Assembly (NCBI GenBank): GCA_973895155.1
Contig: OZ316895.1
Location: forward strand, 22,022,558 to 22,086,557
Length of the DNA: 64,000 bases
Source of the DNA: Marsupella aquatica
Lineage: Eukaryota > Plantae > Marchantiophyta
Direction of reading: 5' to 3'
The notes under the pieces are model-generated. The model was given only the letters and a program-made list of their open reading frames with translations, had not been told where the DNA came from and did not search any database. Below are positions 261 to 31,526 of the stretch, piece after piece (the stretch's first letter is position 1; each line of letters begins with the position of its first letter). A program made the translations under genes and the position numbers.

Positions 261-412
261 GAGTGATAGTTATTGGAAGAGGTTGAATGGGTAATCTCGC
301 TTTATCGGCTCTAGGGCTCTAAAAGCTGACATGATGTATGGGTCACTCACGTTATGGGCCACTAGGTTTAGTCCCCACTTTTTCATTGTGATTCTGGCCT
401 TTGCCTTTGCCT

Positions 413-833: not shown

Positions 834-849
834 ATCTTCCCCTTGACTC
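834..849 (-). other. Polypurine tract of the copia element
   Basis: Minus-strand GAGTCAAGGGGAAGAT lies directly before the 3' LTR. Confidence 0.85.
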
Positions 850-1023
850 TGGTCTAGGGGAGAGTAATACTGCCAATGTATATGATCCCTCAGCGGGAAG
901 TTCTGGACAAAAACCAAACTGGTTTCCCTCTCTAACTAGAGCAAACCAGAACTAAGCCATAGCCTAATACATAGGAATGAGGAAGAGCATATATCAGTAA
1001 TTACAATAAATATTAAGAAAACT

Positions 1024-4000
1024 CTACTTGTGATGCAATTGCAAAACCTGCAATACGTCACGGTGTCTAGAGAAACTCTCCAAAGGAATCACTTTAGTAA
1101 ATGCGTCAGCCGGGTTGAGTTTACCATCAATCTTGACTAGCTCAAACAAATTATTAGACACAGCCTGCCTGATAAAATGGTACCTGACATCAATGTGCTT
1201 CACTCTGCTGTCCATCACCTGGTTCATAGCAAGGTGGAGCGCACTTTGACTATCACAATGGAGCTTCACATTCCCTTGTGGCAATCCCATTTCAGTGATA
1301 AGTCTATCCAACCAAATCGCTTCCTTTGCTACTTCCGCAGCTGCAACATACTCCGCTTCTGTAGTAGATTGAGCAATACACTTCTACAAAGTAGACCTCC
1401 AACTTATGCATCCACCGCCAAGTGTGAACACGTATCCTGTTGTTGATCTCCTTCGGTCCAAATCTTGTCCATAGTCAGAATCAACATAGCCAATCAATGA
1501 TTTAGCATTCTTTGCATTCGCATCAAATAAAAGACCATGATCCACGGTACCCTTCAAGTACCTGATAATCCACTTCACTGCTTCCCAGTGTACCTTCCCT
1601 GGATTTGACATGTACCTGCTTACCTTACCCATAGCCATGGCAAGATCAGGTCTAGTGCAAGTCATCAAATACATGAGACTCCCCATTGCCTTGTCATACG
1701 GAACCTTTGACATCAACCCCTTCTTTGTGTCATCCGTAGGACACAACGCTGATGATAACTTGAAGTGTGGAGCCAAGGGGGTACTTACTGGCTTGCTATT
1801 CCCCATGTTGAACCTTGCAATTACCTTCCTCGCATAACTGCTTTGCGTCAACCATAGCTTGTCAGCCTCCAAGTCCCTAGTGATCTCCATACCCAAAATC
1901 CTCTTAGCTGGCCCTAAGTCCTTCATCTTAAACTCTACACTAAGCAGTGCCTTGAGCTTAACAATCTCAGACCTATCCTTGGCTGCAATTAGCATATCAT
2001 CCACATAAAGTACTAAAACAATGAACCCAAATATAATATTCTTTACCGATTTCAAATACACACAAGGGTCAAATACACTTCTGTGAAAACCTTGTGACCG
2101 AATCCAATCGTCAAACCGCTTGTTCCACTGTCTTGGTGACTGCTTCAACCCATACAAGGATTTCAGCAATCTGCAAACCAATTCCTCCTGTCCTCTCTTC
2201 ACAAAACCTAGCGGTTGTCTCATGAAGATCACCTCTTCCAATGTGCCATAGAGGAAAGCTGTGACAACATCCATCTGATCTAGCAGCAGACCAAACATTA
2301 CAACAAGTACACACAATAGTCGTATTGTAGAGTACTTAGCAACTGGTGAGAAGACCTCATTGTAATCCACACCTTTCTCTTGTGTGAATCCCTTTGCTAC
2401 CAACCTAGCCTTGTAGACCTTCGATCCACCTCCTATGGAATTATCCTTCAGCTTGTAAATCCACTTGCTGTCCACCACTTGCTGACCCTTAGGCAGCTTA
2501 ACAAGCTCCCAAGTTTTGTTGTCCTTTAGTGACTGCATCTCCGTTTGCATTGCTGCAGTCCACTTCTGCTTCTCCTTTGAAGCACTTGCCTCATGAAATG
2601 AAGAAGGTTCCCCTTCTTCCAAAATTAACGCATCACCCTCATCATCAGCTGTAAAATCATCCTCTTGCAGTTGAGATGAATCAACCCACTGTCTATACCT
2701 TGGTGGAGCGCGTACAGTGCGACCAGATGTTCTTCTAGCCGATGACTCCGGTTGATCTGCGTGTGCTGGTACAATTTGAAGCTCAACAGCATCCACTTGC
2801 TGCTCACCAGCATCAACAAACTCCTCTGGTTCCTCTGGCACAGGAACCAGCTCCATAATTGGAGCAACTCCTTCTCTCCGGTCATGCACCTCATAACCAA
2901 TCTCCCCCTCAACGAGATCCGGGATAGGAGATTTTCCTTTGTCAGTACGGGAGACCTGAGTATTCTCCCCCTCCTTCAATAATCTGGATTCATTGAAGGA
3001 AACATCCCTACTGACAACGAGCTTACAGACAATAGGATCCCATAGCCCATAGGCTTTCACACCACTCTGGTACCCAAGAAAAACACATTTCTTGGAGGTA
3101 GGATCCAACTTGGTCCTATTCTACTTCGGTGTGAGAGCATATGCATCACTTCCAAAAACTACCAAGCCATGATAGTCTGCTTGCCGCTTATAGCGCATCT
3201 CAAACGGCGTTTTGAAATTGATAGCACTAGAAGGAGAAAGATTTACCAAATAAGCTGCGGTATTGACAACTTCTGCCCAAAATTCTTGTGGTAAACCTGA
3301 TTGGCTCAACATACTCCGTGACCGCTCCAACAGTGTCCGATTGAGCCTCTCAGCGACACCATTTTACTGCGGAGTATAAACTGTGGTGAGATGGCGAGTT
3401 ATCCCCTGTTCTGAACAGTACTCTTCAAATTCCATTGAAGTGTACTCCCCGCCGTTGTCTGACCTCAGACTCTTCACCCTTGTATCCAAACACTTGATCG
3501 TGTTTCCAGTCTGATTCTCCACCTGGGCCTTCCATTTCTTAAAAATGGACAAGACATCAGACTTATGCGTCATGAAATAAATCCACACAAATTTTGAGTA
3601 ATCATCAATAAATGATACATAGTACAACTTTCCAGAGTGTGAGGGAGTCGGGGATGGACCCCACACGTCACTATGTATGTACTCAAGAACCGCTTTGGAA
3701 CGATGAGTTCCAACACCAAAAGCATGACGATGCTGCTTTCCAAGAATGCAATGCTCACAAAACTCTAATTTATAAGATTGCAAATCAGAAATGAGTCCAT
3801 TCTTCCGTAAGATAGCCAAACCCTTCTCACTCATGTGGCCTAGCCGTGAATGCCACAGTTGAGTCATCTCCTCGTGAGACTTGGTTACATTGGCCTCTCC
3901 ACATACAGTATTGCCCTGTAACACATACAAATTCTTTTGTCTACTCCCCTTCAAAATCACTATCTCTCCCGACCTGACTTGAAGTTCACCATCAATAACG

Positions 4001-5337
4001 CTCCATTGATGACCATTTGAATCCAACACACCGAGTGAAATCAGATTCTTACGCATGCCAGGTACATACCTGACTCCGGACACTGTGCGCACAGCGCCAT
4101 CAAACATTTGAATCTTCACAGACCCAATTCCCTCAATTTGACAGGAGTGATCATTTCCCATCAGAACTGAACCGTTTGAAACAGAGTAAGAACTGAAAAA
4201 CTCACGAATGTAACAAATATGAAAAGAGCAAGCACAATCAAAAATCCACACATCATCTGCTCTCCTAGATAATGTGCACAGGGCATACTCCCGGCTTCAT
4301 AAAACATACTCATCATTGAGTAAATCAACTTCTTCATCAGCCCTAGCCACATTTGCCGATGAAGTTTCCGCTGCCTTTCCCTTACAGTCTCGCTTGAAGT
4401 GTCCAACTTGGTTGCACTTCCAACATGTTACCTGCCTCCTCTGAGGGGATTTACCCTTGGACTTAGATCTGGATTTAGATCTAAATTGGGTTCTACGGTC
4501 CCCAGTTGGTCGCTGCATACTTCTCCCACGGTTAACATTGAGGGCAGCACCAGATGATGAAGGCTGTGACGTGATGTGCATCTTCTGCTAAAGATCATCA
4601 CTAAGCAGAGAACTTACCACGTCATTGTATGAAATGGTATCCCTATCACGATGCAACAACACTCGTGATAGGGACTGGTAAGATGGAGGCAATGAACTAA
4701 GAAGCTGCAGAGCCTTCGTCTCATCATTCAAAGTCTCCCCAAGGTTTTCCAAGTCAACGACCATGTCGTTGAAAGCATCCACATGGTCTTGCAACTTCGT
4801 ACCGGATTCCTTCATCTTGAAACTCATCAGTTTGTAGGAAGTGTAGAGCCGGTTCGACAACTCCTTGCGGTGATACTTGCTCTGCAATTCCGCAAACAAG
4901 GACATGCAATCCTTATGTGCACCCAACTGCTTGATGATGGGAGGCATGAGATAGAGTGTAACACACCACACTCCCTGCTCCTGCATGCGGTCCCATTGTT
5001 TCTCATCAACATCGTCTTCACGAGGGCTCAGCAGTTGGCCAATCCCTAACGCATAGAGCACTCCCTTCACCTGCTTCTCCCATAGCAAGTAGTCAGAGCG
5101 CCCATCATACTTTGTCACTTCATACTTGGGTCCCCCAAGCTTGAAAGTCCCCATCTTCTTCTTTGGCACTACCGTGAGCTCCGGTAGTAGTACTGCTTCC
5201 TCCACCACACGCCGCACCGGTGATGGTATCGGTGTCACGTGCTCTTCCTCCTGCTCCTCTCTCTGCCCCAGAAACCTCCGCGGTGATCCTCGTGCTTCAA
5301 GTTCCACGTCTTCGAAAAACTCCTCTGAATCACTCAT
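1024..5337 (-). pseudogene. Copia gag-pol polyprotein, one reading frame broken by five in-frame stops
   Basis: ORFs 4588-5337, 4297-4581, 3364-4251, 3121-3330, 1384-3108 and 1024-1311 share one frame. Motifs: zinc knuckle CWKCNQVGHFKRDC, protease WIFDCACSFH, WHSRLGH...CEHC, integrase HSDVWG and RSDNGGEY, RT KARLVAKGF and LYVDDML, RNase H GYVDSD and KHIDVRYHFIR. Confidence 0.95.
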
Positions 5338-6476
5338 ATGAGAAAATCACAAAAAATGTTGTTTTTCACAACTTCTCAAAAAACTCGAAACTCAACACCG
5401 CCGCATAGCCCACAAAGCTAGGAGTCCAATACTGAAAACCAAAATCAAAATCGAAATTTGACGGAAAAGTTATTCAAATTTCCGTCGAGGTGGGTAAAAC
5501 CTTGGGAAACTCCCCCGTTTTGACCACCTCAGGGAATAACCGAAATACCAAGTACAACCCGTTGTCGGAATTGCGATGTGATTGGTGCGCCGCGTTGCCA
5601 ACTTCAATGGCTACGATCTCGCCAAAAAATAACCAAAAAAGTTACCGTTTGGCGGATGAAATCTTTGTCGGACGGTCAAAAAATAGCTCTCTGGTTTTTT
5701 GGAATATTCTATGACCCTTGTACAGGCCCTGTGAGAATTTTGGAAGAACAATCGAGGGGCTGACACGTGTCCTCGAACCCCCAAAACCCCCTACCACCCT
5801 TCGTCGTCGAAATCTGGTCGCGCGCGCAGAAAATACACACGGCAGAATGTACCCCTCGACACCAAACGCAAGATATCTCACTCGGGTTTTGACGAAATCA
5901 AGATCTGATTTCAGATTTGGAAACCAGACTCCGAGGCGATGAGGATCGATATAAGAAGCACCCAAAACGAGGAAAGAATGAGGGAGAAAAAAATTGGTAA
6001 AGATGACAGATTTCTCTCAATTGCCATAGCCAATTTCGAATCAGTTTTTCAAAGAAAAAAAATGGTACCTTGTCAACAACGAATGTTGATCAATTGCACT
6101 TGGTGCCGTCACCAAGTCCAACAAGGTAATTGATTTTTGCTTAGCCTTCCTCTTTGCATCAAAGAGCCAATCCCGGACTCAAAACAATCGTCTTGCCTCA
6201 ATCTCTCCGTTGAGTCAAAACACTTGACGCTTCTCCCTCCGAGTCGATTGCCAACTTTCTTCACAAAATCCAGAACGACAAAAACTTAGATCTCTCTACA
6301 CCACGAGCTCCGTTCAGCAATTTCTTCACACCGTTAGAAAGCTCTTGCCCTGATCTATCCGTTGAGCCAATAAACTCCAAGTTCCATGCGACGGAACTCT
6401 GGGAAATCCACCGACACTTAACGCTGGAAAAACCGTCATGAAATCCCGTCACGAACACACGTCACCTCCCAAGCAT

Positions 6477-6488
6477 GCTCTGATACCA
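6477..6488 (-). other. Primer binding site, tRNA-iMet
   Basis: Minus-strand TGGTATCAGAGC, 2 nt inside the 5' LTR. Confidence 0.93.
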
Positions 6489-6490
6489 AT

Positions 6491-6893
6491 TGCTGAGCAT
6501 AGACGACGATCGCAACGGCAAGCCCATGAACCATCCAACGCACAATAGTCGACACAAGAGATACGTGGTTCACTTCCTTGAGGCTACGTCCACGGGAACA
6601 CACAAGAGAGCTTTACTGAACTCTAAGCCCGTCAGCTATACCGAGTCTCCACAGTGTAAGCTCTCCCTATCTCTCAAGTGGCTCCATAACAACGAGCCTT
6701 GGTTCTACCTCTCCAAGCACACATGCCTCTTATGATATAGTGTGCAACTTAGTTGTACCTAACCACATAGTTGTACCTAATCACGTAGTTGTACCTAATC
6801 ACGTAGTTGTACCTAACCACATAGTTGTACCAACCCACGTTGTTGTACCAACCACGTCATACCTAACCTAGACGTAAGAGTAAATACCCAACA
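6491..6893 (-). repeat. 5' LTR (403 bp)
   Basis: Reads tgctgagc...cccaaca on the plus strand. Six units of the 18-bp repeat, one fewer than the other LTR. Confidence 0.95.
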
Positions 6894-9288
6894 TGCCTGC
6901 TGGCCTCCCTGAGGGAGTTGTTCTGATATGTCTATGGGGCTGTTTGCTTCCCCCCGGCCGTGGGGTTTTCGCGGTCTCACCTTTTTATTATAATTTTTTT
7001 TTCCCAGGAAGACCAAAGAAGACTTTGGTCATAGTATCCAAAATCTCATTCTATATGATTTTCAATTTCAACAACAATCCAACCACAATAATCTCCAACG
7101 ACAAATGTACTACCGGACTAGACTGTCCAGTCCATCACTGTATCTCCCGGACCAGTAACCAATTCTAAGACTGTTTGCACAAAACCAACAGGTGGTTGCA
7201 AATGCCTAGCAAATTGAAGATCTGGTGTCTGATGATTTCTTAAAGCAGGCAACCCAATGAGGCTTGTAATGGAAAGGTACTCTGTAGTTGAAAGCTGTCA
7301 AAATTTGGGGTCCTTGGGAACCCTTCCTTTTGAGAAAACCCCCAAAAAACATTAAACTTAAGAGTGAACATCTGCAGAAAGAATTAAGTTTACATCCACT
7401 AACTATCACCCAAAAGGAGCTCTCACTCAAGTACTCAAAACTCATAGTGTGTTTGGGGTCCGAATGGTCCCCAAACAGCTCAGCTCGTCCCATGACCTAA
7501 CCAGCTCTCAACATCAGTCTAAGTTCTGGTGTGTATCACCAGCTCAGCGCTTTGCTTGTGGAACGCTTCATTCCACAAGTCTCCCCCTACTTAGTCCCCA
7601 CCAGATGGCCATATATCCCAGGGGCCTAGACCATAGAGGAGCTTGCGTTGGAGTTAGCAACACCGGAACTAAGTGGTAGGGTTGTCGAGTTCCGCAACTG
7701 CACTACTTAAACTCAAAACAAATTACTAGTCAATAATGCTTCTTTTGGTTGAATAACAAATTACTTTATGAATCTCAAGAGGCTAGAGATCTGGATGATG
7801 GGCCACCAATATGACGTAGGCAGTTTCCTTTATGGATCTCAACAGCGAACGAGATGCCTTCTCCAAGAACCAAAAATGCACATCGAGAGAGAGCATCAAT
7901 CTATTATTCTGGAGGGTGCCCACTGTTTTTCCAATCCACGCTCACCCAACTACAGTACTGTACACGAAAGAAGGAACCGACCCAGCAAACGAACGTTCGT
8001 GGCAATCAAGTATCCGTTTGTTGGAAATGGCGATCATCTCCTATGACGTGCTCATGTCTTCTTAATTGCTTTTGTGGGAAGGCATTGTCTCTCCTCCACT
8101 CTCACCGGAAATAATGAGAACCAGCTTGCAAAGAAAAAGTGAGACCAATTCTCTTTTGATATGAGAGGGCCTCGTCAACGTTGGATGTCCCTCTGGAGCC
8201 TGTTTCTCCGCTCACACGGTTGAAGCAAAAGCTTCACAGGAAATGTAGCTTCGTGGATGTTGTTGGGGATCAGCTGAAGAGCTGGATTCTAGGGAGAGAG
8301 AGTGTGAGTTTGCTGAAATTGTGTTACTCCACGAGAAACCGAGTGTGACGCCATTTAGTGGGTTGGAAATTGCATGGAAAGGGAGGAGGGATGGTGATTC
8401 ATATTGAATAATCAGAAGCATTTGTCATCCGTGATTTACAACGAGGAACGCAATACGAGAAACAAATTTCGTGGATGACGTGAGAAGCGGACGAGGGATA
8501 AATGAGTACAGTAATTTACTTTGCAGGCCCGCATTGTTCACTGCTGTTCCGTCCAAGAACACGAAACCGAAAGAACTGTCTTGCAAAATTGAATGGTGGA
8601 CGAGAGGAGTTTGCGACACGATTTCCAGTATCGAGAGACTTGTAGAGCGATGGTGCGTGTGGAAGAAGACATGCGGAGTTGAAGGCGAGGAGCTAAAGGT
8701 CAGCTCCAAATGCAGGCAGATTGAATGAATGTAAGTAACTAGAGAGAGAGAGAGGGCGAGAAAAACGTGATGTAAGAAATTATCAGAACGCTGTGAACGA
8801 GCTGGACGGCGAACACGATTCTCATTATGGAGGAAGCAGGCAGCACTCGTGGCAGGGGCTGGAGATGACATCGTCATGTAGAGTAATGAGGACTCGTTTT
8901 CGCTAGTCCTATCATTTGTCCGAGCTTCATCGATCTGGGAATCCATTGGCCTAAATGTCTACCAAGAAATGGGTCGCTGAGGAAGAAAGCGAATCTTTCC
9001 CCTAGCCAGCAGCTATCACAATTGGGATTGCAAATGGGGACCTCAGGAAATAGCAGTCTTGGTTTCCCCTCCTAGTAAGCTGGTCGCTGTTAGAGTGCTA
9101 GAAAAAATTAAGATTCGCTCCTGCAGCACAAGGCAACTATCACAGTTGAGTTTGCAGATGACATTCTCGTTAAACAACAGCGGGAGCCTTCGTTTCCAAA
9201 GTGCCAGACAAGAGTACGTTGTGGATCGAAGATTTGGGAACTCATTTTCTATCGTTTTATCTCATTCAAGTCTTGAGGGAAAACGAGT

Positions 9289-10698
9289 ATGGAACACTTA
9301 CGAGGAGGAGGAGCACAACAGAAGATGGAGCTGGTGGAGAGGTTGAGGAGGGAGGATCACCTCCGTGTTAAGCACGACAAGCTTTTCTCAGATTGGAAGA
9401 TCTTGGTCGGTCCAGCCGATTGGGAGGGTCACACAGCTGGAAAGGAGGGCTCGCAAAGATACAGGCTCCACAATTTGCCAGCCTCTTACTTCGGGCCAGG
9501 CGTTTACGAATTGGGCTTGACTAAGCAACATACTAGCACTCCTCCTGAGGATTCCAAGCAACAGAAACTCAAAAGACATGCTGTGGTGGTCGTATACCTA
9601 GGCCAGGCTGACAATGTCCGTCACCGACTCCAAAGATATGGCCAGACGGGATCTCACTTGGAAGGTACTAGATCCGGTCTCGTTTTTGAGATAGAAGAGA
9701 ACATGGAGCAGCAGAAATCAGGGGTTATGACAGCCAAGCTGAGAGGACGGTTTGCACCAAGGCCTCGAGTTGAGAAAGCAAGAGGTAATACAGAGACCAG
9801 CAGCAGTATGCAAGAGGGGCTCAAGCTTTTCACCGAGGTCTTTTCTAGAGGGTATTCAATTGCTTTCAGATGGGCCAGGACAGAGAGCAAGCAGATGGCT
9901 GAAAAGGTAGAATCCGAGCTGCTTCATGTGTTTGACTATCCTTGGAACACCTCCCTGAATGGGGCTCGACGGCCTCGAGACATTCTCACCAAACTGGACA
10001 TGCTGCAGTACCAACTGGAGAGGAGTTTGTGCCTGGGACCAGTCTTGGGTTCCGGCTGGAGAAAGTGGGAGTATTTCGGCAGGAAGGTTGGTATTTCTGT
10101 GCCTTTGAGAAAGCCCACAACAACTGCTCCAACGCGGGCTAAAGTCTCCACAACCTTTTTCTTGTCTTCCACTAAAGGAGGAGCTGCAGAGGATGATGGT
10201 GGGGGTGCTAGCTTGGTTTGTGGTGTGCTTCTGCCTAATGGATCAACCTGTGGCACTCCTCCTGTGAAAGGACGCAGGCGTTGTGAAGACCACAAAGGTC
10301 AAAGAGCCAAGGTTTTCACCAGGAAAATTCGAACCAGAATACCCCCAATTCAGCAGCAGTCAGAAGAACACAACCATGCTGAAATGGGCAGCAGCACAGG
10401 CAGAAGCAGGGCCAGCAGCAAACCAGCAGTTGTGATCATTAAAGCACAAATGCAGGGTAAGAGAGTGGAGATCACCGATGTCTCCACTGATGGGTTGGTA
10501 GGAGTTTGTGGAGCAAGTGTGGACGGTGGGGCCCCATGTTTGAGCCGACCTGTGCAAGGGAGGAAGCGCTGCGCAGCCCACAAAGGATTACGCACATCAT
10601 CCAAGAGCAATCCAAAAGCGGCCTCATTTGCAGACAAAGATGCCGTGTGGTCAAGCCTTTCAAGGAGAAATGGTGGCCGGTTCGTTGATCAAGTCTGA
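9289..10698 (+). CDS. EFFECTOR OF TRANSCRIPTION (ET/HRT)-family protein: GIY-YIG-like domain plus two Cys/His ET repeats; single exon
   Basis: 469-aa ORF with HDKLFSDWKILVGPADW, RYRLHNLP, PGVYELG and VVYLGQADNVRHRLQRYG. Two ET repeats: CGVLLPNGSTCGTPPVKGRRRCEDHKG and CGASVDGGAPCLSRPVQGRKRCAAHKG. Confidence 0.9.
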   Translation: MEHLRGGGAQQKMELVERLRREDHLRVKHDKLFSDWKILVGPADWEGHTAGKEGSQRYRLHNLPASYFGPGVYELGLTKQHTSTPPEDSKQQKLKRHAVVVVYLGQADNVRHRLQRYGQTGSHLEGTRSGLVFEIEENMEQQKSGVMTAKLRGRFAPRPRVEKARGNTETSSSMQEGLKLFTEVFSRGYSIAFRWARTESKQMAEKVESELLHVFDYPWNTSLNGARRPRDILTKLDMLQYQLERSLCLGPVLGSGWRKWEYFGRKVGISVPLRKPTTTAPTRAKVSTTFFLSSTKGGAAEDDGGGASLVCGVLLPNGSTCGTPPVKGRRRCEDHKGQRAKVFTRKIRTRIPPIQQQSEEHNHAEMGSSTGRSRASSKPAVVIIKAQMQGKRVEITDVSTDGLVGVCGASVDGGAPCLSRPVQGRKRCAAHKGLRTSSKSNPKAASFADKDAVWSSLSRRNGGRFVDQV

Positions 10699-12039
10699 GG
10701 AGAAAGTGGAAGGTGAACTACTCTCGTGGTTAATCCATCAAGTCAACGCTTTACCGTAATTTGAGAGTCCTCACCGATCCGGCTAACTGCTGGCTATACT
10801 TCCTAAAACTGATTTTGGCTGAATTCCACATCTCTTGCTCTAGATGTATGTCTTGTATTTGCCACAAGCAGATGGTATAGTATGGCCTTTTTTGGGAGGA
10901 CAGTATGTGTCATATGTTGTAATCATCAGATGTCGTAGGGATTATAATGCCATGGCTAGATGTAAGAAAACAGCAGAGGGTACGAATTCAGGGGTGGGAA
11001 ATCATTTTTGAAGTTAATCTTCACATTTGGCTCTAGCAACCGTTGTTTGGTTACTGTGAAGGTTCTGTAAGTTCGTGAATCCCTAGGAGACAGTGTGAGA
11101 AGTAGTAGCAGCCGCAGTTACTGTAGTTCCATCCCCTGAGACGACCAACCAAGTCACTTTGTGAATTTGGCAAGAATTGCTGGTCTCATCTGGGTAGTGG
11201 TTGTCGGTCCGTCCAGCAATCATGTGGTCTGGTTTTGGCAAAATTTTCTGCACGACCACAAATGTTTTATTACAGTCTGAAGTTTATAGGCATTCTTCTT
11301 CTGAACGCCTTCATCTGCTATTCTTTAGTTCCAGAGGGATGTCAATGGGGATGCTGATCTATGCCGATTGTGGGCTTTATGTCAATTTTGGAACTATTAT
11401 CCAAAACAACAACTGGCAGTCACAGTTGAAGAAGTGCATCAATTGATTCAACCTGTAAAGAAGAAGAGATCAAATTTACCCAAAGTGTCCTAACAAATAC
11501 GACGAGAGAGAAATGGAAAACGTCCTGTCGAACCAAGGAAAAAAACAGGATCAAAGAGAAGAACTAGTGATACTGTGATGATGCAGTCAAACATCGTCAA
11601 CACGATCAGAAAGAACTTACTCCAAGGATAGTTCACCAGCCCCTCACCCTCGGCCACTCCATCAAAGTGACAAAAAACCAACACAGCTGCCACACGAAAG
11701 GATTGGAAGAGCTGAAATGGAGGTAAGTAGAGCACGGGATTGGTTCTCAAGATCCATAACTCCATGTTACCAACTTGTGCTTGCTTTCTTGTTAACTGCG
11801 ATTGAAACAATGGGTAAAAGGCCGTATTCCATTACGCTGGCCCCCAAGGCCCTGACCCTTTTCAAGATTGGTGCAGAGAGTCGGGACCCTTCGCATGTTT
11901 CGGGTGATCAACACACAATACTAACAAGTCGAGGAACTCTCGGCGAGCCTTCCGCAGACTGCAGAATGTCCGGGTTTGCAGAGAAGAAGGCTCAAGTACT
12001 GATATGATCTGCTGTGTGTGGAGAATTGGTCCTCGTCCA

Positions 12040-12437
12040 ACTGTCACTCACTTCAAGGTAGCTCCTTTCTAGTAGTATCGGAATTCTCATTGACATAAAG
12101 AAGATGGGCAAGAAATTATTTAGCCAATTCGATGGATTCTTTTATCTAAGAGCACCAGTTTATTATCGTCCTACTGTCACTCACTTCAAGGTAGCTCCTT
12201 TCTAGTAGTATCGGAATTCTCATTGACATAAAGAAGATGGGCAAGAAATTATTTAGCCAATTCGATGGATTCTTTTATCTAAGAGCACCAGTTTATTATC
12301 GTCCTACTGTCACTCACTTCAAGGTAGCTCCTTTCTAGTAGTATCGGAATTCTCATTGACATAAAGAAGATGGGCAAGAAATTATTTAGCCAATTCGATG
12401 GATTCTTTTATCTAAGAGCACAGTTTATTATCGTCCT
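12040..12437. repeat. Tandem repeat, 3 x 133 bp, near-identical
   Basis: ctgtcactcacttcaaggtagc... recurs at 12041, 12174 and 12307. Confidence 0.95.
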
Positions 12438-13395
12438 AAACTGGGATGACGAGTGCTGCATATCAAACGACTCAGTGAGCCAGTCAGATCTGATAGAAGT
12501 GGATCTCGTATATATTTGGTGCCTACACAGCGGAACCCCAGCATCATGAAGTCACAGTCCTGATTGTGTGCATGAAATCTCCATCCAGATCCACCACCAT
12601 ATGCGCTCCGGGTGAAAGACCATCCTCGAACTTGAATTTGGGATACATTGAGTTGAAGTTTAAACTGTACTCGAGCACAGAATTCGGAATGTTTCAGCTC
12701 ATCTCTCATGTGCAACAGACTAAAATATTTATTCCTGATACGATTTGTCAATTGCTCTCTACTACACAAACCTCGGGTCCTCATGAACATAGTGGTCAAA
12801 TGAAATCATCGTAGCCATCGCCCGGGAAAGAGTGAGAGTCGTCTAGGTGAGAACAGATTCTCTCTTATTCTTCGTTGGATGTGAGCACAACCTCAATACT
12901 TCACTACCTCAGATCCAAAGAGACCCATGACCGGTGCACTTCAAAAACACAAGAAAACTTACTACCGGCATGCCCACAAGCCTCGGCAACCCATGTTTCT
13001 TCGGATATAAGAGCGACTTCACCTCAAATCCAGAGACAACCATTGTGCCAAATGAAAAACGCAAGCGCTCCAACGCGGTGGTGCTTGACCACTAAAGACA
13101 ACGAGCCTCAACCCCGGACAAGGTCACTACTACACAAACCTCGGGTCTTCATGAATATAGTGGTCAAATGATATCATCGTAGCCATCGCCCGGGAAAAGA
13201 GTGAGAGTCGTCTTATTCTTCGTTGGATGTGAGCACAACCTCAATACTTCACTACCTCACACCAATGACAGGTTCAGATCAAAAAAACACAAGAAAACAT
13301 ATTACCGGCATGCCCACAAAGCCTCGGCAACCCATGTTTCTTCGGATATAAGAGCGACTTCACCTCAAATCCAGAGACAACCATTGTGCAAAATG

Positions 13396-13728
13396 AAAAA
13401 CGCAAGCGCTCCAACGCGGTGGTGCTTAGCCACGGGGCCTCTAAAGACAACAAGCCCCAACCCCTTGCGAGAGATCCCGGACAAGGTCCGGGCACGAAGC
13501 GCATCCTGTCGGTACACCATTTTTGAGCCACTCTGGGCCGGTGCCGAACTAATGGATACTCATGGTCCACTGACAATCCCGCAAGGAATACGAGTTACGC
13601 TAATTGCTCCGACTTCGGCATCACCAGGGCCAACGATTGATCAGAAGGTTGGAGGTCTGGTGAAGAGCTTTCATCTGGGTCCAGTCACCAGGGTCCGCCG
13701 CTAAAGCAGTAGCAATTCAGGGCGCTCT
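13396..13728 (-). ncRNA. Putative Pol III structured RNA, copy A (shorter, diverged)
   Basis: USE-like TAAACCATAA (13794-13785), 25-bp spacer, TATAAA (from 13759), predicted start AGAGCGCCC 31 nt later. 3' end GCGCTT followed by T5. Homologous to copy B. Confidence 0.5.
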
Positions 13729-14640
13729 GAGAATGCACTCTCGGACCCTGGGATTTATAGTCGGGTTGTCTGAGTTGCCCATGCTTATGGTTTAACAGAA
13801 CAGTCCAAGCGATCGAATTGCTCTCTACCTTGCTCTCTCATATACCTTGGAATTAAAGGGTTACTACTCTCTAACCCTGGGACCAGAAAGTGAGGAAATG
13901 CTGACCAGTGGTAGCAGGGAAGTTTTTGCAAGCTTTGTGAGAACAGGTTTCAGACTAGAACCCCAGCCCAAAAAGTCATTATATGTACCTGCCTGAGAAA
14001 GACTATTACAGGGTAAGACTTTCTGGGCACAGGGTTATGGAAATGGGTACCGGTCTGTAACCTCTCCCGGTAACCTTTCTTCCTGACAGAAATTACGTTG
14101 CATTTTAACTCACATGCCTTGGAAGTTGTGTTTTAGCTCATATATTATGCTCTCTCATACACCTTGGACATGTTGTGTTCCTGATCTGAATTGTCAATTG
14201 TTCACAAGGGACTACTGCACAATTGTCTAGTCTTCATGAACATAGGGGTCAGATGATAGCATTGTAGCCGTAGCCTGTGAAAGAGTGAGAGTGGTCGTTG
14301 CTGAGCTCACGTATTCATTCTCATTTTTTGTTGGATGTGAGCCCAACCTCACCTCAAATCCATTTGCCTTCAAACACACAAGAACCGTCATTACCCTAAA
14401 ATCCAAGCAGACCAATGATTTGTTCCTCCAAATCCAAAGAGATCCATGATGCAAACTGAAAAACTGAAGAACAAGCACACCAACATGGTGATGCTTTAGC
14501 CCACAGAAACACACTAGATGCATCTAGCTGCCCATCATTTGGAATGGTTTTGTCTAATGCAGATATGTCCTCTAGGTCAAGTGAGTTACCACTGCTAGAA
14601 ACGAAGCTCCTGCTTTGAAGAAAGGTATATAGAGTCAGGA

Positions 14641-14682
14641 CATTATAGTGGGATTGTTTGAGCTACCCATGCTTATGGTTTA
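14641..14682 (-). promoter_or_regulatory. USE-like plus TATA-like module of a decayed copy of the ncRNA unit
   Basis: TAAACCATAA (14682-14673), 25-bp spacer, TATAAT (from 14647). A degenerate 3' end and flank lie at about 14190-14500. Confidence 0.5.
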
Positions 14683-16127
14683 ACAGACCAACCAATGAGT
14701 GATCCCCTCCTCTTGCAAAAAGAATCTAACTAATAAAGTGTGATGGAAAGTTGCTTTCTAGGCTTTAGTCTAAAGTTGAAGCATCTAGACCCAGTAACTC
14801 TAAGTGATGGCATAACTGAAAATGAGGATAGAGACAAAAACAACAAAGATGGGGGCAAAGGTGAACAAAACATAAGGTGGAATCATGTTTTTGAGGAAGG
14901 TTTTTTGTCTCCTCTCCTCATCTCTATTTCCATTCAAGGAATGGGTAATCAGGCCAGTCTTACAGGTTACAGAAAACTGTTAGTTTGGAGTTTTGTCTAG
15001 TCTACATTATATCCACTTAAAGGTAAGAACTCTCTAGAATGCAGTTAATGCTAAAATATTCAGCCCCCAATTTCCAGGATAAATCCTTGTGCACACTAGT
15101 CCTGTCTTCATTCTGCAAGCACTTTTTGCAAACGTAGGAACTGCAAGGGCCTGACTGTTTGCATACTTGGACTCTGTTTTCCCATAAAGAAACTGTGCCT
15201 GGCAAATGAGGTGTTTCAGGCACAATTTTTTCCTTAAGCAATATGTTGCCAAAACACTGGTTTACTGACTCAAATTGAAGGGTCACATGCATGCAAGACA
15301 GCTGTAGGAGCATTTCAGGGAGCTTTGTTTAAGAACCTGCAGGTATAGATGTGCCATCCCTATTGAAAGTTGGGACATGACTAGCAAATATTTTATAATG
15401 CTTGCAAAACCTCAACAGAATTTTGTATCTCTTGTTTAAAACACTGACTTCACCCTTTCCACCTTCTTAAAAAGACAAAGAAACAGAAACGACCCCAATT
15501 CCAGCCCCACCAAAAAATTATTTTTCCCCTGATAAATTTCTTCCCAGCCCCTCAAAAATTGGGCCTTTGCGGGCTGCCTCCCTCCCTCCAAAACAATCAA
15601 TCATATCCCCAAGATTCCCCCAAAAGTTTATCGTTTGTTTCCTGTAAGTGCCAAGTGCCAAGTTTATTTGCCAAATCAAAAATTAAATTCAAAGAGATCC
15701 ATTGTGCTAATTGCAGGCTCAAAAATGCAAGCAATCGAGCCCAAATGTCCTCCTTAGCCATGGGACCAGTACCATCTTAGCAAAAATGGGAAATTTGGAG
15801 TCATATGACAATGCCAATATTCTAACACAAGCACTTTAAAACACAAGGCACTCCAAGTACAAAAAATGAAAATACAGTCAAACTCAAATACAACACCCCA
15901 TCATGTGCACTATTTAAATGGGGTGTTCTATTCAAATACAAGGCCATGGCCTTCTGTCCGGGGAAGAGGGGAGTATCAAAGCCTCTCCCCAATCCCTTGC
16001 AAAAACAATAGCATCCTGTGGGTACACCATTTTTAAGCCTCGTTTTGGGCCGATGCCCAACTCCTAAAGTGAAATGCCAAATCAGAAATTAAAATCTCAA
16101 ATACATCCACGCTGCAAATTGCATAGC

Positions 16128-16505
16128 AAAAAACACAAGCGCTCCAGCACGATGGTACTTAGCCACGGGACCACTAGGGACAAAGAGCCTCTCCCCAACC
16201 CCTTGCGGATCCAAGGCTCGTCCTGTCGGTACACCCTCTTTAAGCCCCGCTCCCGGCCGATGCCGAACTCCTGGACGTGCGCTCCGCCCACTGGCTTCCC
16301 GCAAGAGATCCGGGCCGCTCGATGCCCCCGACATCCAGCACCGCATCGCCAGCTAGCAATCCTTGCCGCAGCTTCCAAGACAAGACCACGAGTGCGGAAG
16401 AGTCCTCCCAACCGTGCACTGGCGCTAGACTGGCCACAGCCCCCAAGACTGGATCCCATGGCCAGGGTCCTCCGCTAGAGCTAACAAACTCTTTCAGGGC
16501 GCTTT
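16128..16505 (-). ncRNA. Putative ~378-nt Pol III rod-like structured RNA of unknown family, copy B (best folded)
   Basis: USE-like TAAACCATAA (16572-16563), 25-bp spacer, TACAAG (from 16537), predicted start AAAGCGC 32 nt later. 5' AAGCGC pairs with 3' GCGCTT, nested internal helices, T6 end at 16133-16128. Confidence 0.65.
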
Positions 16506-16624
16506 GCAACGTCAAGCGTCGGATTCAGCATCTTGTAGTCGGCGTTCCTAAGCTACCCATGCTTATGGTTTAATAACTGCGTGAAGAGAGAGGAAAGAGC
16601 TCGGGCAACTGTTGCTCCCTTTTC

Positions 16625-16952
16625 TGGATCCAACGGCCAGGGTCTGTCGCTGAAGCATCTGTAAGGCAGAGTTTTTCAGGGCGCTTGATTAGGGGAATTT
16701 CAGAAAAAAAGGACTTCATAGTTGGATCGCCTAAGTTACCCCATGCTTGTCGTTTAATAACAGAATAGCGACTAAGTGAACGAGTGCCTTCTGGCGAAGA
16801 GCCTGAGCTGCATCTTCTTCTCTGGATCCAACAATGGCCAGGGTGTGTAGCTGAACCAATTGTAAGACAGAGCTCGGGACGATTGACTGGGAGGAGTTCA
16901 GGAAATGTCCTTAATAGTTGGGCTGCCTAAGCTACTCAATGCTTCTGGTTTG
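16625..16952 (-). pseudogene. Two 5'-only fragments (promoter plus first ~60 nt) of the ncRNA unit
   Basis: Plus-strand ggatcc..ggccagggt..gctgaa and degenerate 'catgct..gttt' USE motifs repeat at about 16625-16756 and 16822-16952. Confidence 0.55.
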
Positions 16953-17503
16953 ATAGAACTATGAATGACTGATGAGCTCCTGTGGCGACAGGAAGCTACA
17001 CTAAACTGTTGCACAGCTGGTGGCCCCCCCAATTATTAGCGCTTCTTTCTGATTGTGGAATTGGCAGTTTCTCTGTTAAGAAGTTCTTTGTCTCATTGGT
17101 TCACTGAATTCTCTGCATGATTTCCAGTCTTCACTGAGACTCCCATATTGGAATTGGCAGTTTTGATGAGAGCTCCGTTCTTCCAAGTGGTCCGAATTGT
17201 GCAGCGACTTTTTCAAATCCAAGTCCTGCAAAGCTGTGAAGTTGCATTTTAACTTACACAATCCAACAGGCTCATATGTTCATTCCTGATCCGATTTGTC
17301 AATTGTTCACAAGGTACTACTGCTACACAATCCTCTAGTCTTCATGAACACAGTGGTCAAACGATAACGTCGAAGCCATCGCCCGGGGCAGAGTGAGAAC
17401 GGATTCTCTCTCATTTTTCTTCGAATGTGAGCGCAAGCCCATTTTTCTTCGGATGTAAAAGCGACCTCACCTCAAATCCAAAGAGACCGATGATGCGAAT
17501 TAT

Positions 17504-17816
17504 AAAATACAAGCGCTCCAACGTGGTGGTGCTTAGCGACGGGACCACTAGAGGCAACTCGCTCCCAACCCCTTGTGAACCCCGGGTAACATCCGAGTTT
17601 GATGAGCACCCTCATCTTTAAGCCCCAATTTCTGGGAGACAGGTGCTCTCGGATGCTCATCGTCCACTAGTCAACTATTCACAAGAGATCGAAGATACAA
17701 CAAAGCTCTGATCCAGAACCGCAGCAGACTACTGCAGAGCTTTCAACTGGATCCTGTGACCAGGGTCCGCCACTAGAGCCGCAATCTACCCTAAACGGAT
17801 CTCTTCAGGGCGCTTT
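17504..17816 (-). ncRNA. Putative Pol III structured RNA, copy C (shorter, diverged)
   Basis: TAAACCATAA (17882-17873), 25-bp spacer, TATAAG (from 17847), predicted start AAAGCGCCC 31 nt later. 3' end GCGCTT followed by T4. Confidence 0.5.
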
Positions 17817-18079
17817 GAACAAATTCTGCCAGAGTCACTAACTTATAGCGGGATTATCTGAGCTACCCATGCTTATGGTTTAACAGACCAAGAAGTGAGT
17901 GAAATGGCCCTGACAAACAAATCGGCCCTTAAAACTCCCTCAATTTCGGGGATAAATCAAGCACTTTATGGACCATCTAGTATTATCCATGCTGACGAAG
18001 CCCCATGCATAGAAATAGTATTCTCCATGCCTAGACATTCAGATCAAGTACCCCGTGATAATCTATGGCCTTTGTTCTC

Positions 18080-18236
18080 TTTTGTTCTCACCGACATCTT
18101 GGCCGACATCTTTTGTTCTCACCGATATCTTGGCCGACACGACATCTTTCTTCTCAACGACCTCTTGGCCGACATGACATCTTTTGTTCTCAACGACATC
18201 GGGAACAACATCTTGGCCGTCACGACATCTTTTGTG
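18080..18236. repeat. Minisatellite, about 5 imperfect units of ~30-33 bp
   Basis: Recurrent ttttgttctca(c/a)cgacatcttggccgaca. Confidence 0.85.
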
Positions 18237-18827
18237 CAACGCACGGGTATTGAGCTAGTCCGATAAAAAAAGAACCTTCAAAATTAGGACCTTCTACTGC
18301 AGTGCCATCCCTCTTGAACTTTGGACGTGACTGACAAATATTCTATTATGCTGTAAAATTTAAGAATTTAAAATTTAAGAACTAAATCAGGAGAAGAAAT
18401 TGTGGCTTTGCATTGTTTCCTGGAATAAACAAAATGAACCTATTTGCACAGGCAATAGGGTAGTGTTATTGTCTGAAGTACCCATTCTTGTGGTTTGGTT
18501 TAACTAAACAATAAATGAGTGGTCAGGTCATTTGGTGGAAAGAGTGCTATGTAGGTTATAGGCTGTGTTTAGTGTGTTTCCTAAATTTGTTGTGCAAACT
18601 TTTGCCATCTTGTTACCTGGATGAGGTCCTGGCAAAACTACAAAGAGATATCAGGCGTTGGTGACACAAGACTGAGCGTAGTTATTTATTTATTTGTGTA
18701 AAAATGGAAAAATGGCACTCAAAACTATAATTACTCCAAATCCCTTTTTGCTTGTCTGTGTATTTCTTTCATTTAAGTTTCTCCTTCACCCTCCCCACCT
18801 TCTTAAAATTAGTTCATGGACCCCCTA

Positions 18828-19150
18828 TTAACGGAAAGCTTCAGACGACATCAACTCCTGAAAGTCCACCTTCCCATTATCGTCCGCATCGACTCCCTTG
18901 ATCATCTGCTGACACTTCTTATAACTATGTCCTTCTTTCATGCCCAGGCTCTTCAACACCATCTGCACGTAGACGAGGTCTTTATTGAACCCTGCTAAGC
19001 TTGCTTCTCTTTCGTTCACTCGTGCCTCATGCATTGGACAATCTAACAGTAGCGAGAGGCATCACTGAGTTAGGAACTGCAATGATGACGCCATGGAAAG
19101 GAGTGTTGAGTGATCAACATAGAATCATGTCCACTTCTTCCTTCGTGGCA
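18828..19150 (-). pseudogene. Calmodulin-like (EF-hand) pseudogene fragment
   Basis: VLKSLGMKEG...CQQMIKGVDADDNGKVDFQE is a CML C-terminal EF-hand. The upstream part (ATKEEVDMILC*) is broken by stops or frameshifts. Confidence 0.7.
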
Positions 19151-20729
19151 GCAGAAGGTCAAGAAAATTGTCACAATTACTTTGTCATCAGATCATCTTG
19201 CCGAGAGAGATTTAGTTATTATTCAATTGAAACACAATTCAGAATGCGGGTGGGCAGCGGTTACTCAGGGTAAAAAAAATGGAAGATGGGCCTCCTACTA
19301 GTTGAACAATCTGTTACCTAGGATAAATAAAACGGTTATTTTTCAAACATTTCTACATCAAGGTTTACGGCATGGCATCCTCAAATTTACCAAAATCATG
19401 CCACACACACGAATGTTGAAGCAATTTTATTTTGTAAACCAATCCGTATCTGTTTGCCGCGCGTCTCGATGACATGGCGCATTGTGGAGTCTCAAATTTT
19501 GGAAGGGACCTCTAGTGGGGTCCGTAAAGAAATGAAACAGAAACAACCCCTTTTCTTTCCCAACCCCAAAAATAGGTGGCCTTTGTGCCTCTGACTCCCT
19601 CCCCCCACAACAATCAATCTTACCCCAAAAAATTCCCCCCAGAATTCCCCCAAAAATTTCTCACTTGCCTCCCGTATCTGCCAAGCCAATTGCCAAATCA
19701 TAAATGAAATTCAAAGAGATCCATGGTGCCAACTTCGGAATCAAAATCATAAGTGTGGTTGTGCTTATCCACGGGAACACTAGGGTCGAAGAGCCTCCCC
19801 AATCCTTGGCGAAACTATCACATTCTGTCGGTACACCATTTTTTAAGCCTTTTTTTGGGCCGATGCCAAACTCCTAAAGTGAATTGCCAAATCAGAAATG
19901 AATCCAAAACACAGACGCTCCAGCAAGGTGCTTAGCGACAGGAGCCCTAGGGACAGGGAGCCTCCAAAAGTAGATCCCATGGCCACACGGTGGTGCTTAG
20001 CCACAGTATGACTAGGGACAGGGAGCCCCAAAAAGAAGATCCATTGGCGAGGGTAACGGACTGGTGGTGATTCAAAGTTCCAGGTCGGAAGACTGCTGAG
20101 ATTTTCACCATGGATACAAAATGGCAGGCACTGCACAAGCCATGAAGTCGGCTTCTTTGCGAGTTGGTGTGCAATTCGAAATTGGTGCATTCAATCTCTT
20201 GACTTTTCTAATTCATTTAAGTTCTCCAAATGCCATTGTACTGATGGGGAGTGCCTGGTGATAGAGAAACATAAGTACCTTTCCCTCATATGTTTGTTGA
20301 CAGATTTCAGCTTTAGACACTGCTATCTCTCTCAACAAACAAAACACATCATTCCTCTTACATCTGGGATGTTTAACATCTCTAACAGCTCCAATACAAT
20401 AGATGTTATCACAAACAAGGATCCGTAAAATGTGTGACCAGTGGAGGCTGCTGATAACCTCAAGCATTTAAGAATGAGTACTCTAGTGAGACTTCTTCAA
20501 ACTGTATCCTTGTCTCCATTCGAAGTTAGTATGGATATTGCTTTGAATACAAGGTCAAAATTTTTTATTAATGTCCTGAATCTCTGGAGAAGTCAAAAAC
20601 TCTGTGACAGATTTGAAAGTCCGTTCACATACTTATATGTCCAGGTATGTTCAATTGTGCAAAACCCGGTCATAAAGGTAAGTTCTCAGTCTTTATCTTA
20701 AATCATCAGTGACCAAGATTTACCCAACC

Positions 20730-27719: not shown

Positions 27720-30700
27720 CTACTTTGCGCTGTCAACTTCGGCAGCTAAATCAGAAAGGGCCAGTCGCGTTGCGGTAGCAGGACTCATCAGCCATGGAAT
27801 TAACAAACTACCTGTTGTCATCCACCTTCCAGAGTCTAACGAAGGCTTAAAGGGAGCCCTGAGTTTTAGGATCTCTTTCTGCACCGAAGTTTGAACTATG
27901 GATGAGCCCTCTTGCTTACTCAGCTTTCCCCAGCCTGTAACAATAGTAATCAGCGGTGGAAATTGCTGCAAGTCCTTGGAAGCAAACGGATCTGACAGTG
28001 AAGGTAGAAGACGAAGTAACAATTCCACTTCTACTGGCATGCTAGTCTTCAAGTCTCCAGATGGTTGATTAGATTCTTCGCCGACTGTGTCCTCCTTATT
28101 TGCCACCGGTGGAGGATTCAATTCAGATCCCGAGGTGATCATTTTTAAGTTCTCTAAGTGGCGAGCAATAATTACTAGGTGCCCAAACCATTGGTATAAG
28201 GCCACAAGTGCAGTCCCACTTGACAGCCGTCTCAAATCAAGTTTCCATTCCCGTGCATGAATAACACATACATCTTCAAAAATGCCCATTTGCATGACCC
28301 ACGCCACGACATGCGCTGCTCGACGGTACCAGCCCAATGCCCATAAAGCATCCACCAATGAGCTGGTAAATACAGTACAGGTTTTCAGGTCTTCCTTGTC
28401 CAAGAATGAAAAGAGTCTGCTAATGTTGTTTCGTACCTGATGACAGAAAGTACACTTCCGGTTAGAAAGAGGACACAACCTTGATTGACTGAACAGAAAA
28501 CCAAAAATACATGCTCACCAATACACAGAAATCGATGTTTTACTTTGCATGGCTTGTTTCTCTCACCTCCTCATCATTGCTCATTTGTTTCAAAAGCAAC
28601 CGACAGGTATACACCGCTAATTCTGAATCAAGTCCTTGAAGGAAATTAACAAGTACACCTGCATCTTCAGCACTGCTGCACTTAGAACCGAGAGCAGCTA
28701 GTACGATACTACATGTAAAAACGTTTGGAGCACAGTTGATAGCCACCATGTCGGATTGCACATCTTTTACTTTGTGCAACTTGCCCCATTTGATATAAGT
28801 ATCAATAGCCTCGGAAAAAACATGCTGATTGCACATCGACTCCCTTTTTGCCCGGTCATAAAAGGATATCACCTGTCCACCACACAAAACGTCCATCAGC
28901 CCAATCTCGCAATTCGTTTTCCGCGTGGACTGTAGCAGTGACGCCCCTGAAAATCCCATTGTCCAATTGTGATGAGGTAATGGAAGCCACATCTATTCTA
29001 TCTTAATGCTACTCATAACCATAAACCATTGAGTGCTGTAAACCTCACCTCCTGGTAAGCTCCAGAAGCCTTCAGACAGGACATAAGACTAGAAAATGTA
29101 ACGTCGGTGGGCTTAAGACCGGCAAGTTCTAATTCTTTAAATTTCTGCAGCGCCATTTCAGACTTTCCTCCCTTGCCGTACATATCTATCATAGCATTAT
29201 ATGTGACGACATTAGGCTCGAGTCCAAACTCTCTCATTGCCTGAAAAAGCCTTTCTGCTTCGTCAAGATTTCCATCCCGTCCGCAGGCAGTAACTAGAGA
29301 GCTGAAAGTTCGTGTATTAGGACGACAGTTCTCGGCCACCATATCACTTAAAACTTCCAGTGCCTGAGTGCAATGACCTGCAATGATCCGAACGTCAATA
29401 GCCGTACCGAAATTACAATCACAAGAAACCATCAAGAATTCTTACCTCCTCTTCTACCTGCACTCTCAGAACCGGGAATGACCCTAAACTCTCAGAAACG
29501 TTCTGCAGTCTAGCGATCTCAAATTTCAGCGTCAACCTTGAAAACCCTGGCAGTCTCTGCGCGGACTCGGTACTCTCATAAACGCCTCAAATGAAGACCT
29601 AAATTCATGAAGACCTAAACTCATGAAGATAGTGTTTCCGTGCATTAAACATTATACCACAATCCCCCAGCATGCCAGGTCGGATCTCTGGAGACATTCA
29701 GACTAAGACGCTCCATGGAAATTTTGAAAATGTACCTCTGGCCCAAAATCTAAAACCCTTTCAAATTAGGGTTCTTCTCGCAAGACCACCAAACCCTAAA
29801 ATGTTTCAAAAACTGATCTTCTGCAATAGTATGTCGTTATGAACATGCGTGTATCAGCCGTAGAAGCAGTCCGCTCAGATGTCTATAAATTGGAGGCACG
29901 AGAGAAAGGTCCTCCGAAGAATGAAGTGGCTTCACGAATACATCTGAATCTTACCTGAGTTAGCATATAAAGTAATCAACGTTGTGTGAGTAACCACGGA
30001 GGGTTTGAAACCCTTCTTCTTCAAGATATCCAATATTCTCTGAGCTTCTTTCACGTGTCTTCCAGGAATACAAGCTTGAAGTAGAGTATTAAAAGAAACA
30101 AGATCCGGTTGAATGCCTTGAGAATACATGTCTCTGAAAACATCGACCACTGTACCGAGCCCCATTCCGGCTTGGACATAAGAATTCATGACAGTGTTGT
30201 AAGTGATTAGATCCGGCTTGTAGGCGCTGTGCTTCATGGATTCGAAGAGATCCTCCAGAGAATCTATCTGCCCTGCTTTACCCCGTGTGTTCAACATGGC
30301 ATTCAGCAACGCCGGATCCTTCTCCACCTGTGTATTCTCTAGACCCTCAAAAACCTTTTCTGCTAATTCAAAACTGCCGGCCTCACCGAGAGCAGATATG
30401 ATGGTGGTATAGATGTGAGGATCTAATTGGCACCACCCTTGCCTCTCCATCCACCGCAACACTTCAAGGGCAGCCTGAAGATGCCCCTTCCGACCTAAAT
30501 CTTGCATTACGGAGTGGATAATTCTGGCAATCTGTGAGTATGGGACGAACTTAATTGTTGAATAGTTACTATCGGGGCGGTCTCCTTGCCCGCTTAAATT
30601 ATCGAGAGTCCACATAATGTCCACTCTTGAAACGAATTTTCTGAGCCATTCGGTCAACACGTTTCCGACCAATGTGGCATCCTGCAAATTCATGATGGTT

Positions 30701-31299: not shown

Positions 31300-31526
31300 C
31301 GCGCTGCGCAGGCTCCGCCTCCTCCTCTTGCCTTACAATTCGCATCGTCTTCATCCCCCCGATGACCTTCTCCTCTATTCTACTCTCTCCTCCTCCGCCT
31401 CTCCGTGCCCCAATGCTCCTCTTGCATCCCTCGAAATACCACCACCACAAGCAGTCCATCACAACATCGCGAATCCATCTACAAAACCCCTCACACGTCC
31501 TCAAACTTCCACCGCCACCGCCACCA

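Follow-up and report, generated by a model that had tools for sequence, protein, structure and literature searches.

The locus and its repeated units

The window, i.e. the whole 64,000-nucleotide stretch of Marsupella aquatica DNA that was analyzed, contains Copia retrotransposon fragments, a GIY-YIG effector-of-transcription gene, a PPR gene and a plastid-type IF2 gene. The GIY-YIG gene (9277-10698, plus strand) is a single open frame whose protein is 75% identical to its counterpart in Calypogeia fissa, 55% to that in Marchantia paleacea and less than 50% to those of mosses and seed plants. A Copia LTR retrotransposon with broken frames and an 18-base minisatellite occupies 412-6893; its LTRs (412-833 and 6490-6893) are 94.5% identical. 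The last exon of the PPR gene (27720-31332, minus strand) by eye seems to encode a C-terminal Smr-type domain, for which there was no Pfam match, and a degenerate satellite of 40-43-base units (61821-63577) adjoins a second Copia-type fragment (60468-61331).

At 13.0-20.0 kb, on the minus strand only, lies a tandem array of a small unit, with three full copies (A, C and D), one deleted copy (B) and some ten further members that are fragments or decayed promoters (Table 1). An earlier, sequence-only reading of 16128-16572 had missed the array; repeat search and self-BLAST identify this stretch as a member of it, copy C. A family HMM built from the full bodies of A, C and D matched these bodies at 13729-13396, 16506-16129 and 17817-17503, respectively. 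Nine partial matches, the deleted copy B among them, span 13055-20031 with E values from 3e-16 to 1.6, and one further match (E 6.2) is at noise level. In addition, three decayed promoter elements were found at 16755, 16951 and 18496. Copy B, from which the terminal k-turn signature described below is gone, is likely a pseudogene, judging from its sequence.

Table 1. Units, fragments and predicted elements of the array (window positions)
Feature	Position	Strand	Remarks
Copy A	13396..13795	-	element 13793, TATAAA 13759, body 13728-13396 (333 bases), T5
Copy B	14459..14683	-	element intact, TATAAT, T5; body cut by deletion to ~160 bases
Copy C, predicted 378-base RNA	16128..16505	-	start inferred at A16505; 62% G+C
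Copy D	17504..17883	-	element 17881, TATAAG 17847, body 17816-17504 (313 bases), T4
3'-end fragment	13055..13124	-	recent local duplicate of copy A end and flank
Weak fragment of 3' end	15721..15771	-	HMM E 0.26
Distal-domain and inner-stem 3'-strand fragment	15987..16065	-	HMM E 4e-11
Decayed promoter and 5' fragment	16619..16756	-	2 mismatches; immediately upstream of C
Second decayed promoter and weak 5' fragment	16812..16951	-	3 mismatches; HMM E 1.6
Decayed promoter element, no recognizable body	18481..18496	-	mismatches 2/16
Three 3'-half fragments	19755..20031	-	19875-19755, 19967-19906, 20031-19985; E 3e-16 to 1e-5
USE-like element, copy C	16556..16573	-	18-base invariant block; 11-base core 16571-16561
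TATA-like box TACAAG, copy C	16532..16537	-	23 bases past core, at -32
Terminal stem 5' strand and predicted k-turn	16493..16504	-	6-bp stem, CCU bulge, G-A-A
13-bp closing helix, 5' strand	16452..16464	-	partner 16172-16160; probability 0.91; 87% of cells paired, 3 copies
Variable domain 1	16330..16451	-	122 bases in C, ~77 in A, ~47 in D; 35% invariant columns
Long inner stem, 5' strand	16298..16329	-	16329-16317 and 16310-16298; partner 16209-16176; probabilities 0.95-0.98
Variable distal domain, two or three small hairpins	16210..16297	-	38% invariant columns; folds differ among copies
Predicted k-turn 3' strand and terminal stem	16137..16145	-	G-G-A
T6, predicted Pol III terminator, copy C	16128..16133	-	

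About 250 bases of downstream flank were duplicated along with the units and are 73-79% identical between copies, which provides a rough neutral yardstick for the conservation of the bodies. In A, B and D this co-duplicated sequence past the T-run can be followed at 12690-13395, 14085-14458 and 17215-17503 (minus strand). It has no match in Rfam and may represent either neutral sequence or a second element.

The surroundings of the units are repetitive. Three near-identical 133-base tandem repeats (12033-12438) mark the downstream edge of the array, and high-depth repeats lie between its units (13835-14101, 18078-18373 and 18641-19708); these are likely transposon fragments together with a 31-35-base minisatellite. 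Across 16238-17839 the contig depth in run X1 stays flat at its lowest level, compared with hundreds to thousands in neighbouring repeats. As depth is a rough measure and no copy number, and X1 may be the source sample, this is at most a hint that the units are not a high-copy SINE. Loose contig ends at 16024 and 16093 in runs X2, X4 and X5 point to an alternative arrangement or an extra copy of the 3' fragments. Thus, the array seems to be structurally variable between haplotypes.

Promoter and terminator

The element at 16572-16563, followed by 25 bases, the TACAAG box at 16537 and the T6 run at 16133-16128 are all present on the minus strand where the sequence-only reading had placed them. 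The 17-mer TAAACCATAAGCATGGG occurs four times exactly and once with two mismatches, on the minus strand only, between 13.8 and 17.9 kb (expected number 0.01). The element is identical over 16 of 16 bases in all six pairs of copies A, B, C and D, and over 18 of 18 in A, C and D. Its surroundings are less alike, with 11-15 of 18 identical bases in the spacer, 7-13 of 24 (ungapped) directly before the start and 9-25 of 40 upstream. Compared with the co-duplicated flank, the 18 of 18 invariant columns correspond to a P value of 3e-4, which is optimistic since the invariant blocks were picked after viewing the alignment. The promoters of the broken copy B (14631-14702) and the full copy D (17831-17902) are 86% identical across 72 bases; this likeness suggests that the promoter was recently converted or duplicated on its own. 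The perfect element in B could reflect recent conversion instead of selection.

Copies A, B and D have their TATA-like boxes at -31. With the 11-base cores aligned on CCA and the transcription start placed, by inference, at the conservation boundary, the gap between core and TATA box is 23 bases and the distance from the core to the first conserved A is 54-55 bases in all four copies. These distances match published values for Pol III, 23-24 bases from USE to TATA box (PMC8287931) and 54-55 from USE to start (bioRxiv 2022.07.06.498962), in 4/4 copies. T-runs of at least four stand at the end of each of the four copies, straight after the terminal stem in the full ones. In the second haplotype the T6 of copy C is broken at 16132 and a T4 is left.

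An upstream element, a TATA-like box at -31/-32 and an oligo-T end are likewise found in the plant type-3 Pol III genes for U6, U3, 7SL, MRP and telomerase RNA, whereas the bodies of the array match none of these RNAs in Rfam. The core of the array, AAACCATAAGC, is unlike the angiosperm RTCCCACATCG and the fern AAACCCACATGTG and nearer to the algal ACCCATAA. Two caveats of the sequence-only reading concerned the deviating USE and the TACAAG box of copy C. They weaken because the fern U6 promoter is described in bioRxiv 2025.01.12.632625 as having the USE AAACCCACATGTG and a TACA-type box (TACATAT), and because the Marchantia U6 promoter apparently lacks the angiosperm USE; the authors of the latter work (bioRxiv 2026.10.23.761446) read this as no USE whatsoever. 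For green algae, Table 1 of PMC8287931 includes ACCCATAA-like elements. In the literature outside subscription journals we found no text that gives a liverwort USE. Paralogue conservation and spacing support the claim of a Pol III gene with USE and TATA box, and it is quite probable that the units of the array are, or once were, type-3 Pol III genes.

Alternatively, the units might not be genes at all but a degenerate tandem duplication or a low-copy mobile element with an accidental promoter look-alike. The weak folding of the bodies (see below), the similarly conserved co-duplicated flank and the interspersed high-depth repeats would suit this explanation, but the exact spacing in 4/4 copies, an invariant element beside unconserved neighbours, T-runs placed right past the terminal stem and, as a rough measure only, the flat and lowest depth over 16238-17839 in X1 speak against it, and we regard it as very improbable.

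Searches for known RNA families

In Rfam searches of the 64 kb nothing reached the gathering score, with sub-threshold noise only at E values up to 5-10; the proposal that the RNA belongs to no known family thus holds against Rfam. A tRNA scan returned no hit, and a check of coding potential, on three frames read from stop to stop across copies A and C, gave no Pfam match. Furthermore, the 3'-end motif had no match in metagenomes, where plant DNA is scarce, and the 3'-end, promoter, distal and 5' motifs had none in viral contigs, which hold little liverwort DNA; the best match in a plasmid collection, likewise with little liverwort DNA, had an E value of only 0.4. A scan of metagenomes for the combination of USE and TATA box gave at least 119 loci. 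Among those listed none matched the family HMM or the U1-U6, SRP and MRP motifs used, one matched an SRP HMM at E 3, and a telomere-like word was present in one; these matches are due to chance. In the literature outside subscription journals we found no account of a liverwort RNA of this kind. The 3' region may be able to pair with 18S rRNA over 10 bases, but these bases are already paired inside the RNA, and the idea was dropped.

Fold of the RNA and its conservation

For the structural analysis A, C and D were aligned by sequence only and the core structure was taken from copy C. In the resulting core of 42 pairs, 90.5% of the 126 cells are paired, with six double-sided changes, all of which fall in the long inner stem. 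The covariation score of this core was reached in 9 of 500 shuffles and other measures in 21-42 of 500. Compensatory changes thus lend modest support to the predicted core fold, with three related paralogues and a structure from copy C as their basis. For the inner helix, independent predictions from C, A and D give probabilities of 0.95-0.96; its sequence is 65% invariant, a conservation no higher than that of the flank.

The fold that emerges overlaps in part with the sequence-only reading. Its terminal helix (16504-16499 with 16142-16137; pair probability 0.76, 100% of cells paired in three copies) and its 12-bp helix (16463-16452 with 16172-16161; probability 0.91, 86% of cells paired in three copies) were recovered. 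The two other nested helices (16386-16379 with 16227-16220 and 16338-16331 with 16278-16271) have an ensemble probability of 0.0 and are chance pairings; the body of copy C offers 42 possible stems of at least 8 bp, and 40 shuffles offer 41.5 +/- 8. A 13-bp helix that the earlier model did not contain (16310-16298 with 16209-16197, probability 0.96) takes the place of the CCUUG/CAAGG side hairpin, and the earlier helix set as a whole shows no covariation excess (346-425 of 500 shuffles reach its score). Many G-U pairs had also been taken to favour a strand-specific RNA structure. This argument is weak because the minus strand is G-skewed across most of the region and the folding of copy C is unexceptional (z -1.08, with 13 of 100 shuffles as stable; plus strand 0.12). 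The folding z scores of A (-0.7) and D (-2.3) are weak as well.

Conservation is unevenly distributed over the body. Invariant columns amount to 69/90 (77%) in the body ends versus 146/228 (64%) in the flank (P 0.03), and the identity between copies is only modestly higher in the body ends (76-90%) than in the flank. With 35% and 38% invariant columns, domain 1 and the distal domain fall below the flank. Copy C is longer than the other copies because its domain 1 carries an insertion that holds an internal duplication (16449-16430 and 16381-16362, identity 16/20). A second haplotype, present in runs X2, X4 and X5, differs from the window by at least 20 body substitutions, two of which rest on a single low-depth contig. 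Among those listed, 11 fall in domain 1, one of 20 in the 86 core bases with its pair kept (P 0.04), two of the ten in gap-free columns at invariant columns (P 0.03), and none in 16133-16207, 16437-16470 or 16528-16570.

Telomerase RNA was also considered, of which the units would be paralogues that have lost template and pseudoknot, with domain 1 at the place of the template core and the inner stem at that of P4-P6. Land-plant telomerase RNA has the same promoter type and a similar end pairing, three-way junction and long stem (PMC8287931); tandem telomerase RNA paralogues are known in plants (PMC12133305). However, for none of six repeat units do A, C or D contain a template one base longer than the unit, inspection found no 5' G-rich and no 3' C-rich tract, and domain 1, instead of being a conserved core domain, is the least conserved part, all of which makes this descent quite remote. 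A 7SK-like scaffold for P-TEFb, as suggested in the sequence-only reading, resembles the units in size, type-3 promoter and end pairing, and GAUC words are present in all copies; yet there is no Rfam 7SK match and no separate 3' hairpin past the closing stem, and such a role is unlikely because plants lack LARP7 (PMC12972900). We regard it as the least credible of the explanations considered.

RNase MRP and RNase P were rejected: the CR-I patterns searched for are absent in all copies and no Rfam match was found. CR-I and CR-V form P4, and CR-V is expected to adjoin the 3' strand of P1; the look-alike GGGGCUUA is misplaced for the pseudoknot, at about 115 bases from the 3' end.

A predicted k-turn joins the two ends

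Two 11-base terminal blocks are the sole invariant blocks of the body ends (22/22 columns; P 6e-5 versus the flank, again an optimistic value). Together they contain the signature of a k-turn, i.e. a stem, a 3-base bulge and G.A and A.G pairs, which is found in all three full copies, once in each, and at the terminal position in 0, 1 and 1 of 200 shuffles per copy. The standard k-turn definition accommodates an A.G third pair (PMC5061560), and k-turns with this third pair belong to the type that folds on metal ions alone (PMC4382518). We predict that the invariant terminal block forms a k-turn of the standard kind, with A.G as its third pair. Past the G.A pairs, where a helix is expected, there is no conserved simple stem. 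Energy models have CC paired with GG instead, and part of the block is explicable by simple C-G pairing with a bulged A.

Box C/D snoRNAs, U3 and U4, to which the predicted motif would be similar, likewise have a 3-base bulge and tandem G.A/A.G pairs next to a terminal stem; the A.G third pair sets the array apart from them. Arabidopsis snoR102, with 365 bases, is of similar length to the RNAs of the array but has C/D boxes (PMC2875012), and the USE-driven Arabidopsis U13 genes, unlike the array, have Pol II spacing. A box C/D snoRNA or scaRNA was rejected as a candidate: no copy has an RUGAUGA box C, and no CUGA precedes the terminal stem.

The position of the invariant bases also bears on the possibility that the units are Pol III-transcribed microRNA or siRNA precursors whose closing stem would yield a 21-base duplex on cleavage by a dicer. 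In Cuscuta campestris, USE-driven MIRNA loci, which are likewise lineage-restricted non-snRNA genes, have the same 54-55 spacing and T-runs (bioRxiv 2022.07.06.498962). Within copies C and D there are 21-base windows in which just 2/19 positions are unpaired. Tandem, fast-diverging copies are typical of young MIRNA families, and the array would suit such a family. In contrast, the best duplex is not at a common place and is poor in A (3-4 unpaired positions and a bulge), the fold is branched, and the invariant bases are the two joined ends and no 21-mer. Precursors of this kind appear improbable.

Relationship to 7SL RNA

Among the alternatives the most serious, though still an unlikely one, is that the array consists of decaying, functionless pseudogenes of 7SL (SRP) RNA genes whose promoters remain recognizable. 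The closing and inner stems would then derive from helix 5, and the distal hairpins would be all that is left of helices 6 and 8. Plant SRP RNA (RF01855) and the array are similar in length, have a long interrupted rod with a multi-hairpin domain at its end and share short look-alike stretches: at the helix 5/6 junction copy D agrees with plant SRP RNA in 14/15 bases, and by eye its ends look like the two helix-5 strands of the Plant_SRP consensus in Rfam. The distal domain of copy C presumably resembles metazoan 7SL as well, and the many fragments and the broken copy are in line with decay.

The searches, however, do not reach significance. No SRP family matched any of the copies up to E 10. 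With seven partial, mutually similar, angiosperm-type reference RNAs and thus limited power, pairwise scores against three plant SRP RNAs had z values of at most 1.8, an SRP HMM had no match in the array, a window scan gave ranks of 12, 17 and 50 of 750, and an S-domain covariance model gave a best E value of 2.7 in 20 kb and nothing over a distal domain. The references come from the Roseovarius nitratireducens TFZ assembly, with eight loci of which seven were confirmed as RF01855. At least seven short contigs of this assembly are plant SRP RNA; in a reference bacterial genome this is contamination.

The SRP54-binding motif and UGUNR are described as defining features of SRP RNA (PMC4605306). 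AGCAG of helix 8, present in 7/7 of the fetched plant SRP RNAs, is absent from A, C and D, and UGUNR occurs near the 5' end in C only (16486), with two changes of the second haplotype inside the word, and not in A or D. The array thus differs from plant SRP RNA in having no conserved UGUNR, no two-hairpin Alu domain and no helix-8 SRP54 motif, and in the pairing of its 5' end with its 3' end. Free decay is furthermore disfavoured by the compensatory changes and the invariant terminal block. Most likely the family arose when an older type-3 gene was duplicated and the duplicate remodelled. By shape 7SL is the best candidate for this ancestor, without statistical support, and the 14/15 match at the helix 5/6 junction is a lead.

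Discussion

Overall, we propose that copy C is one of three full copies of Pol III units with USE and TATA box that would give rise to a k-turn-capped RNA of 310-380 bases, a nuclear scaffold from a family outside Rfam; for this reading as a whole the chances are about even. That the RNA is functional, structured and k-turn-capped and belongs to an uncatalogued family, as modelled here, is likewise finely balanced. The kind of promoter is known, the RNA is not. The TACAAG box in C, the T4 in one haplotype and the weak folding z scores stand against our proposal.

The array, the invariant element, the fixed spacing and the T-runs are observed and form its starting point. By analogy with plant snRNA genes, SNAPc would bind the element and TBP the TATA box, and Pol III would start at an A 54-55 bases downstream and stop in the T-run. 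The closing stem, the side domain and the long inner stem are predicted, with modest covariation, to meet in a three-way junction. The invariant terminal k-turn would bind a protein of the L7Ae family (Snu13/15.5K). La binds oligo-U ends of RNA; it may do so here, and together with the k-turn protein it would protect both ends of the RNA. The two fast-changing domains may be tolerated or client-specific arms, and the array itself probably turns over by duplication and decay. Taken together, the units likely represent a lineage-restricted, unclassified Pol III RNA family with turnover by birth and death and a presumed function. Conservation of the family across liverworts is a tentative idea that we would sooner doubt than accept. 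Equally speculative is the wider view of a new class of Pol III RNP scaffold RNA in liverworts, possibly also in other early land plants, which would have arisen from a 7SL or telomerase RNA gene and would combine a terminal k-turn with exchangeable arms and conservation across species.

Should the copies be silent or confined to a single genus, the array would be a minor case of small-RNA gene decay. The invariant element is also a direct candidate for the leafy-liverwort USE and should be of use in finding telomerase RNA and in building guide-RNA promoters. Few plant Pol III RNAs with USE and TATA box are known, and each addition, e.g. telomerase RNA or the Cuscuta microRNAs, has altered the picture of the field. 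If our reading is true, the family, structured and equipped with a k-turn of its own, would amount to a new nuclear RNP, and the array would show the birth and loss of such genes.
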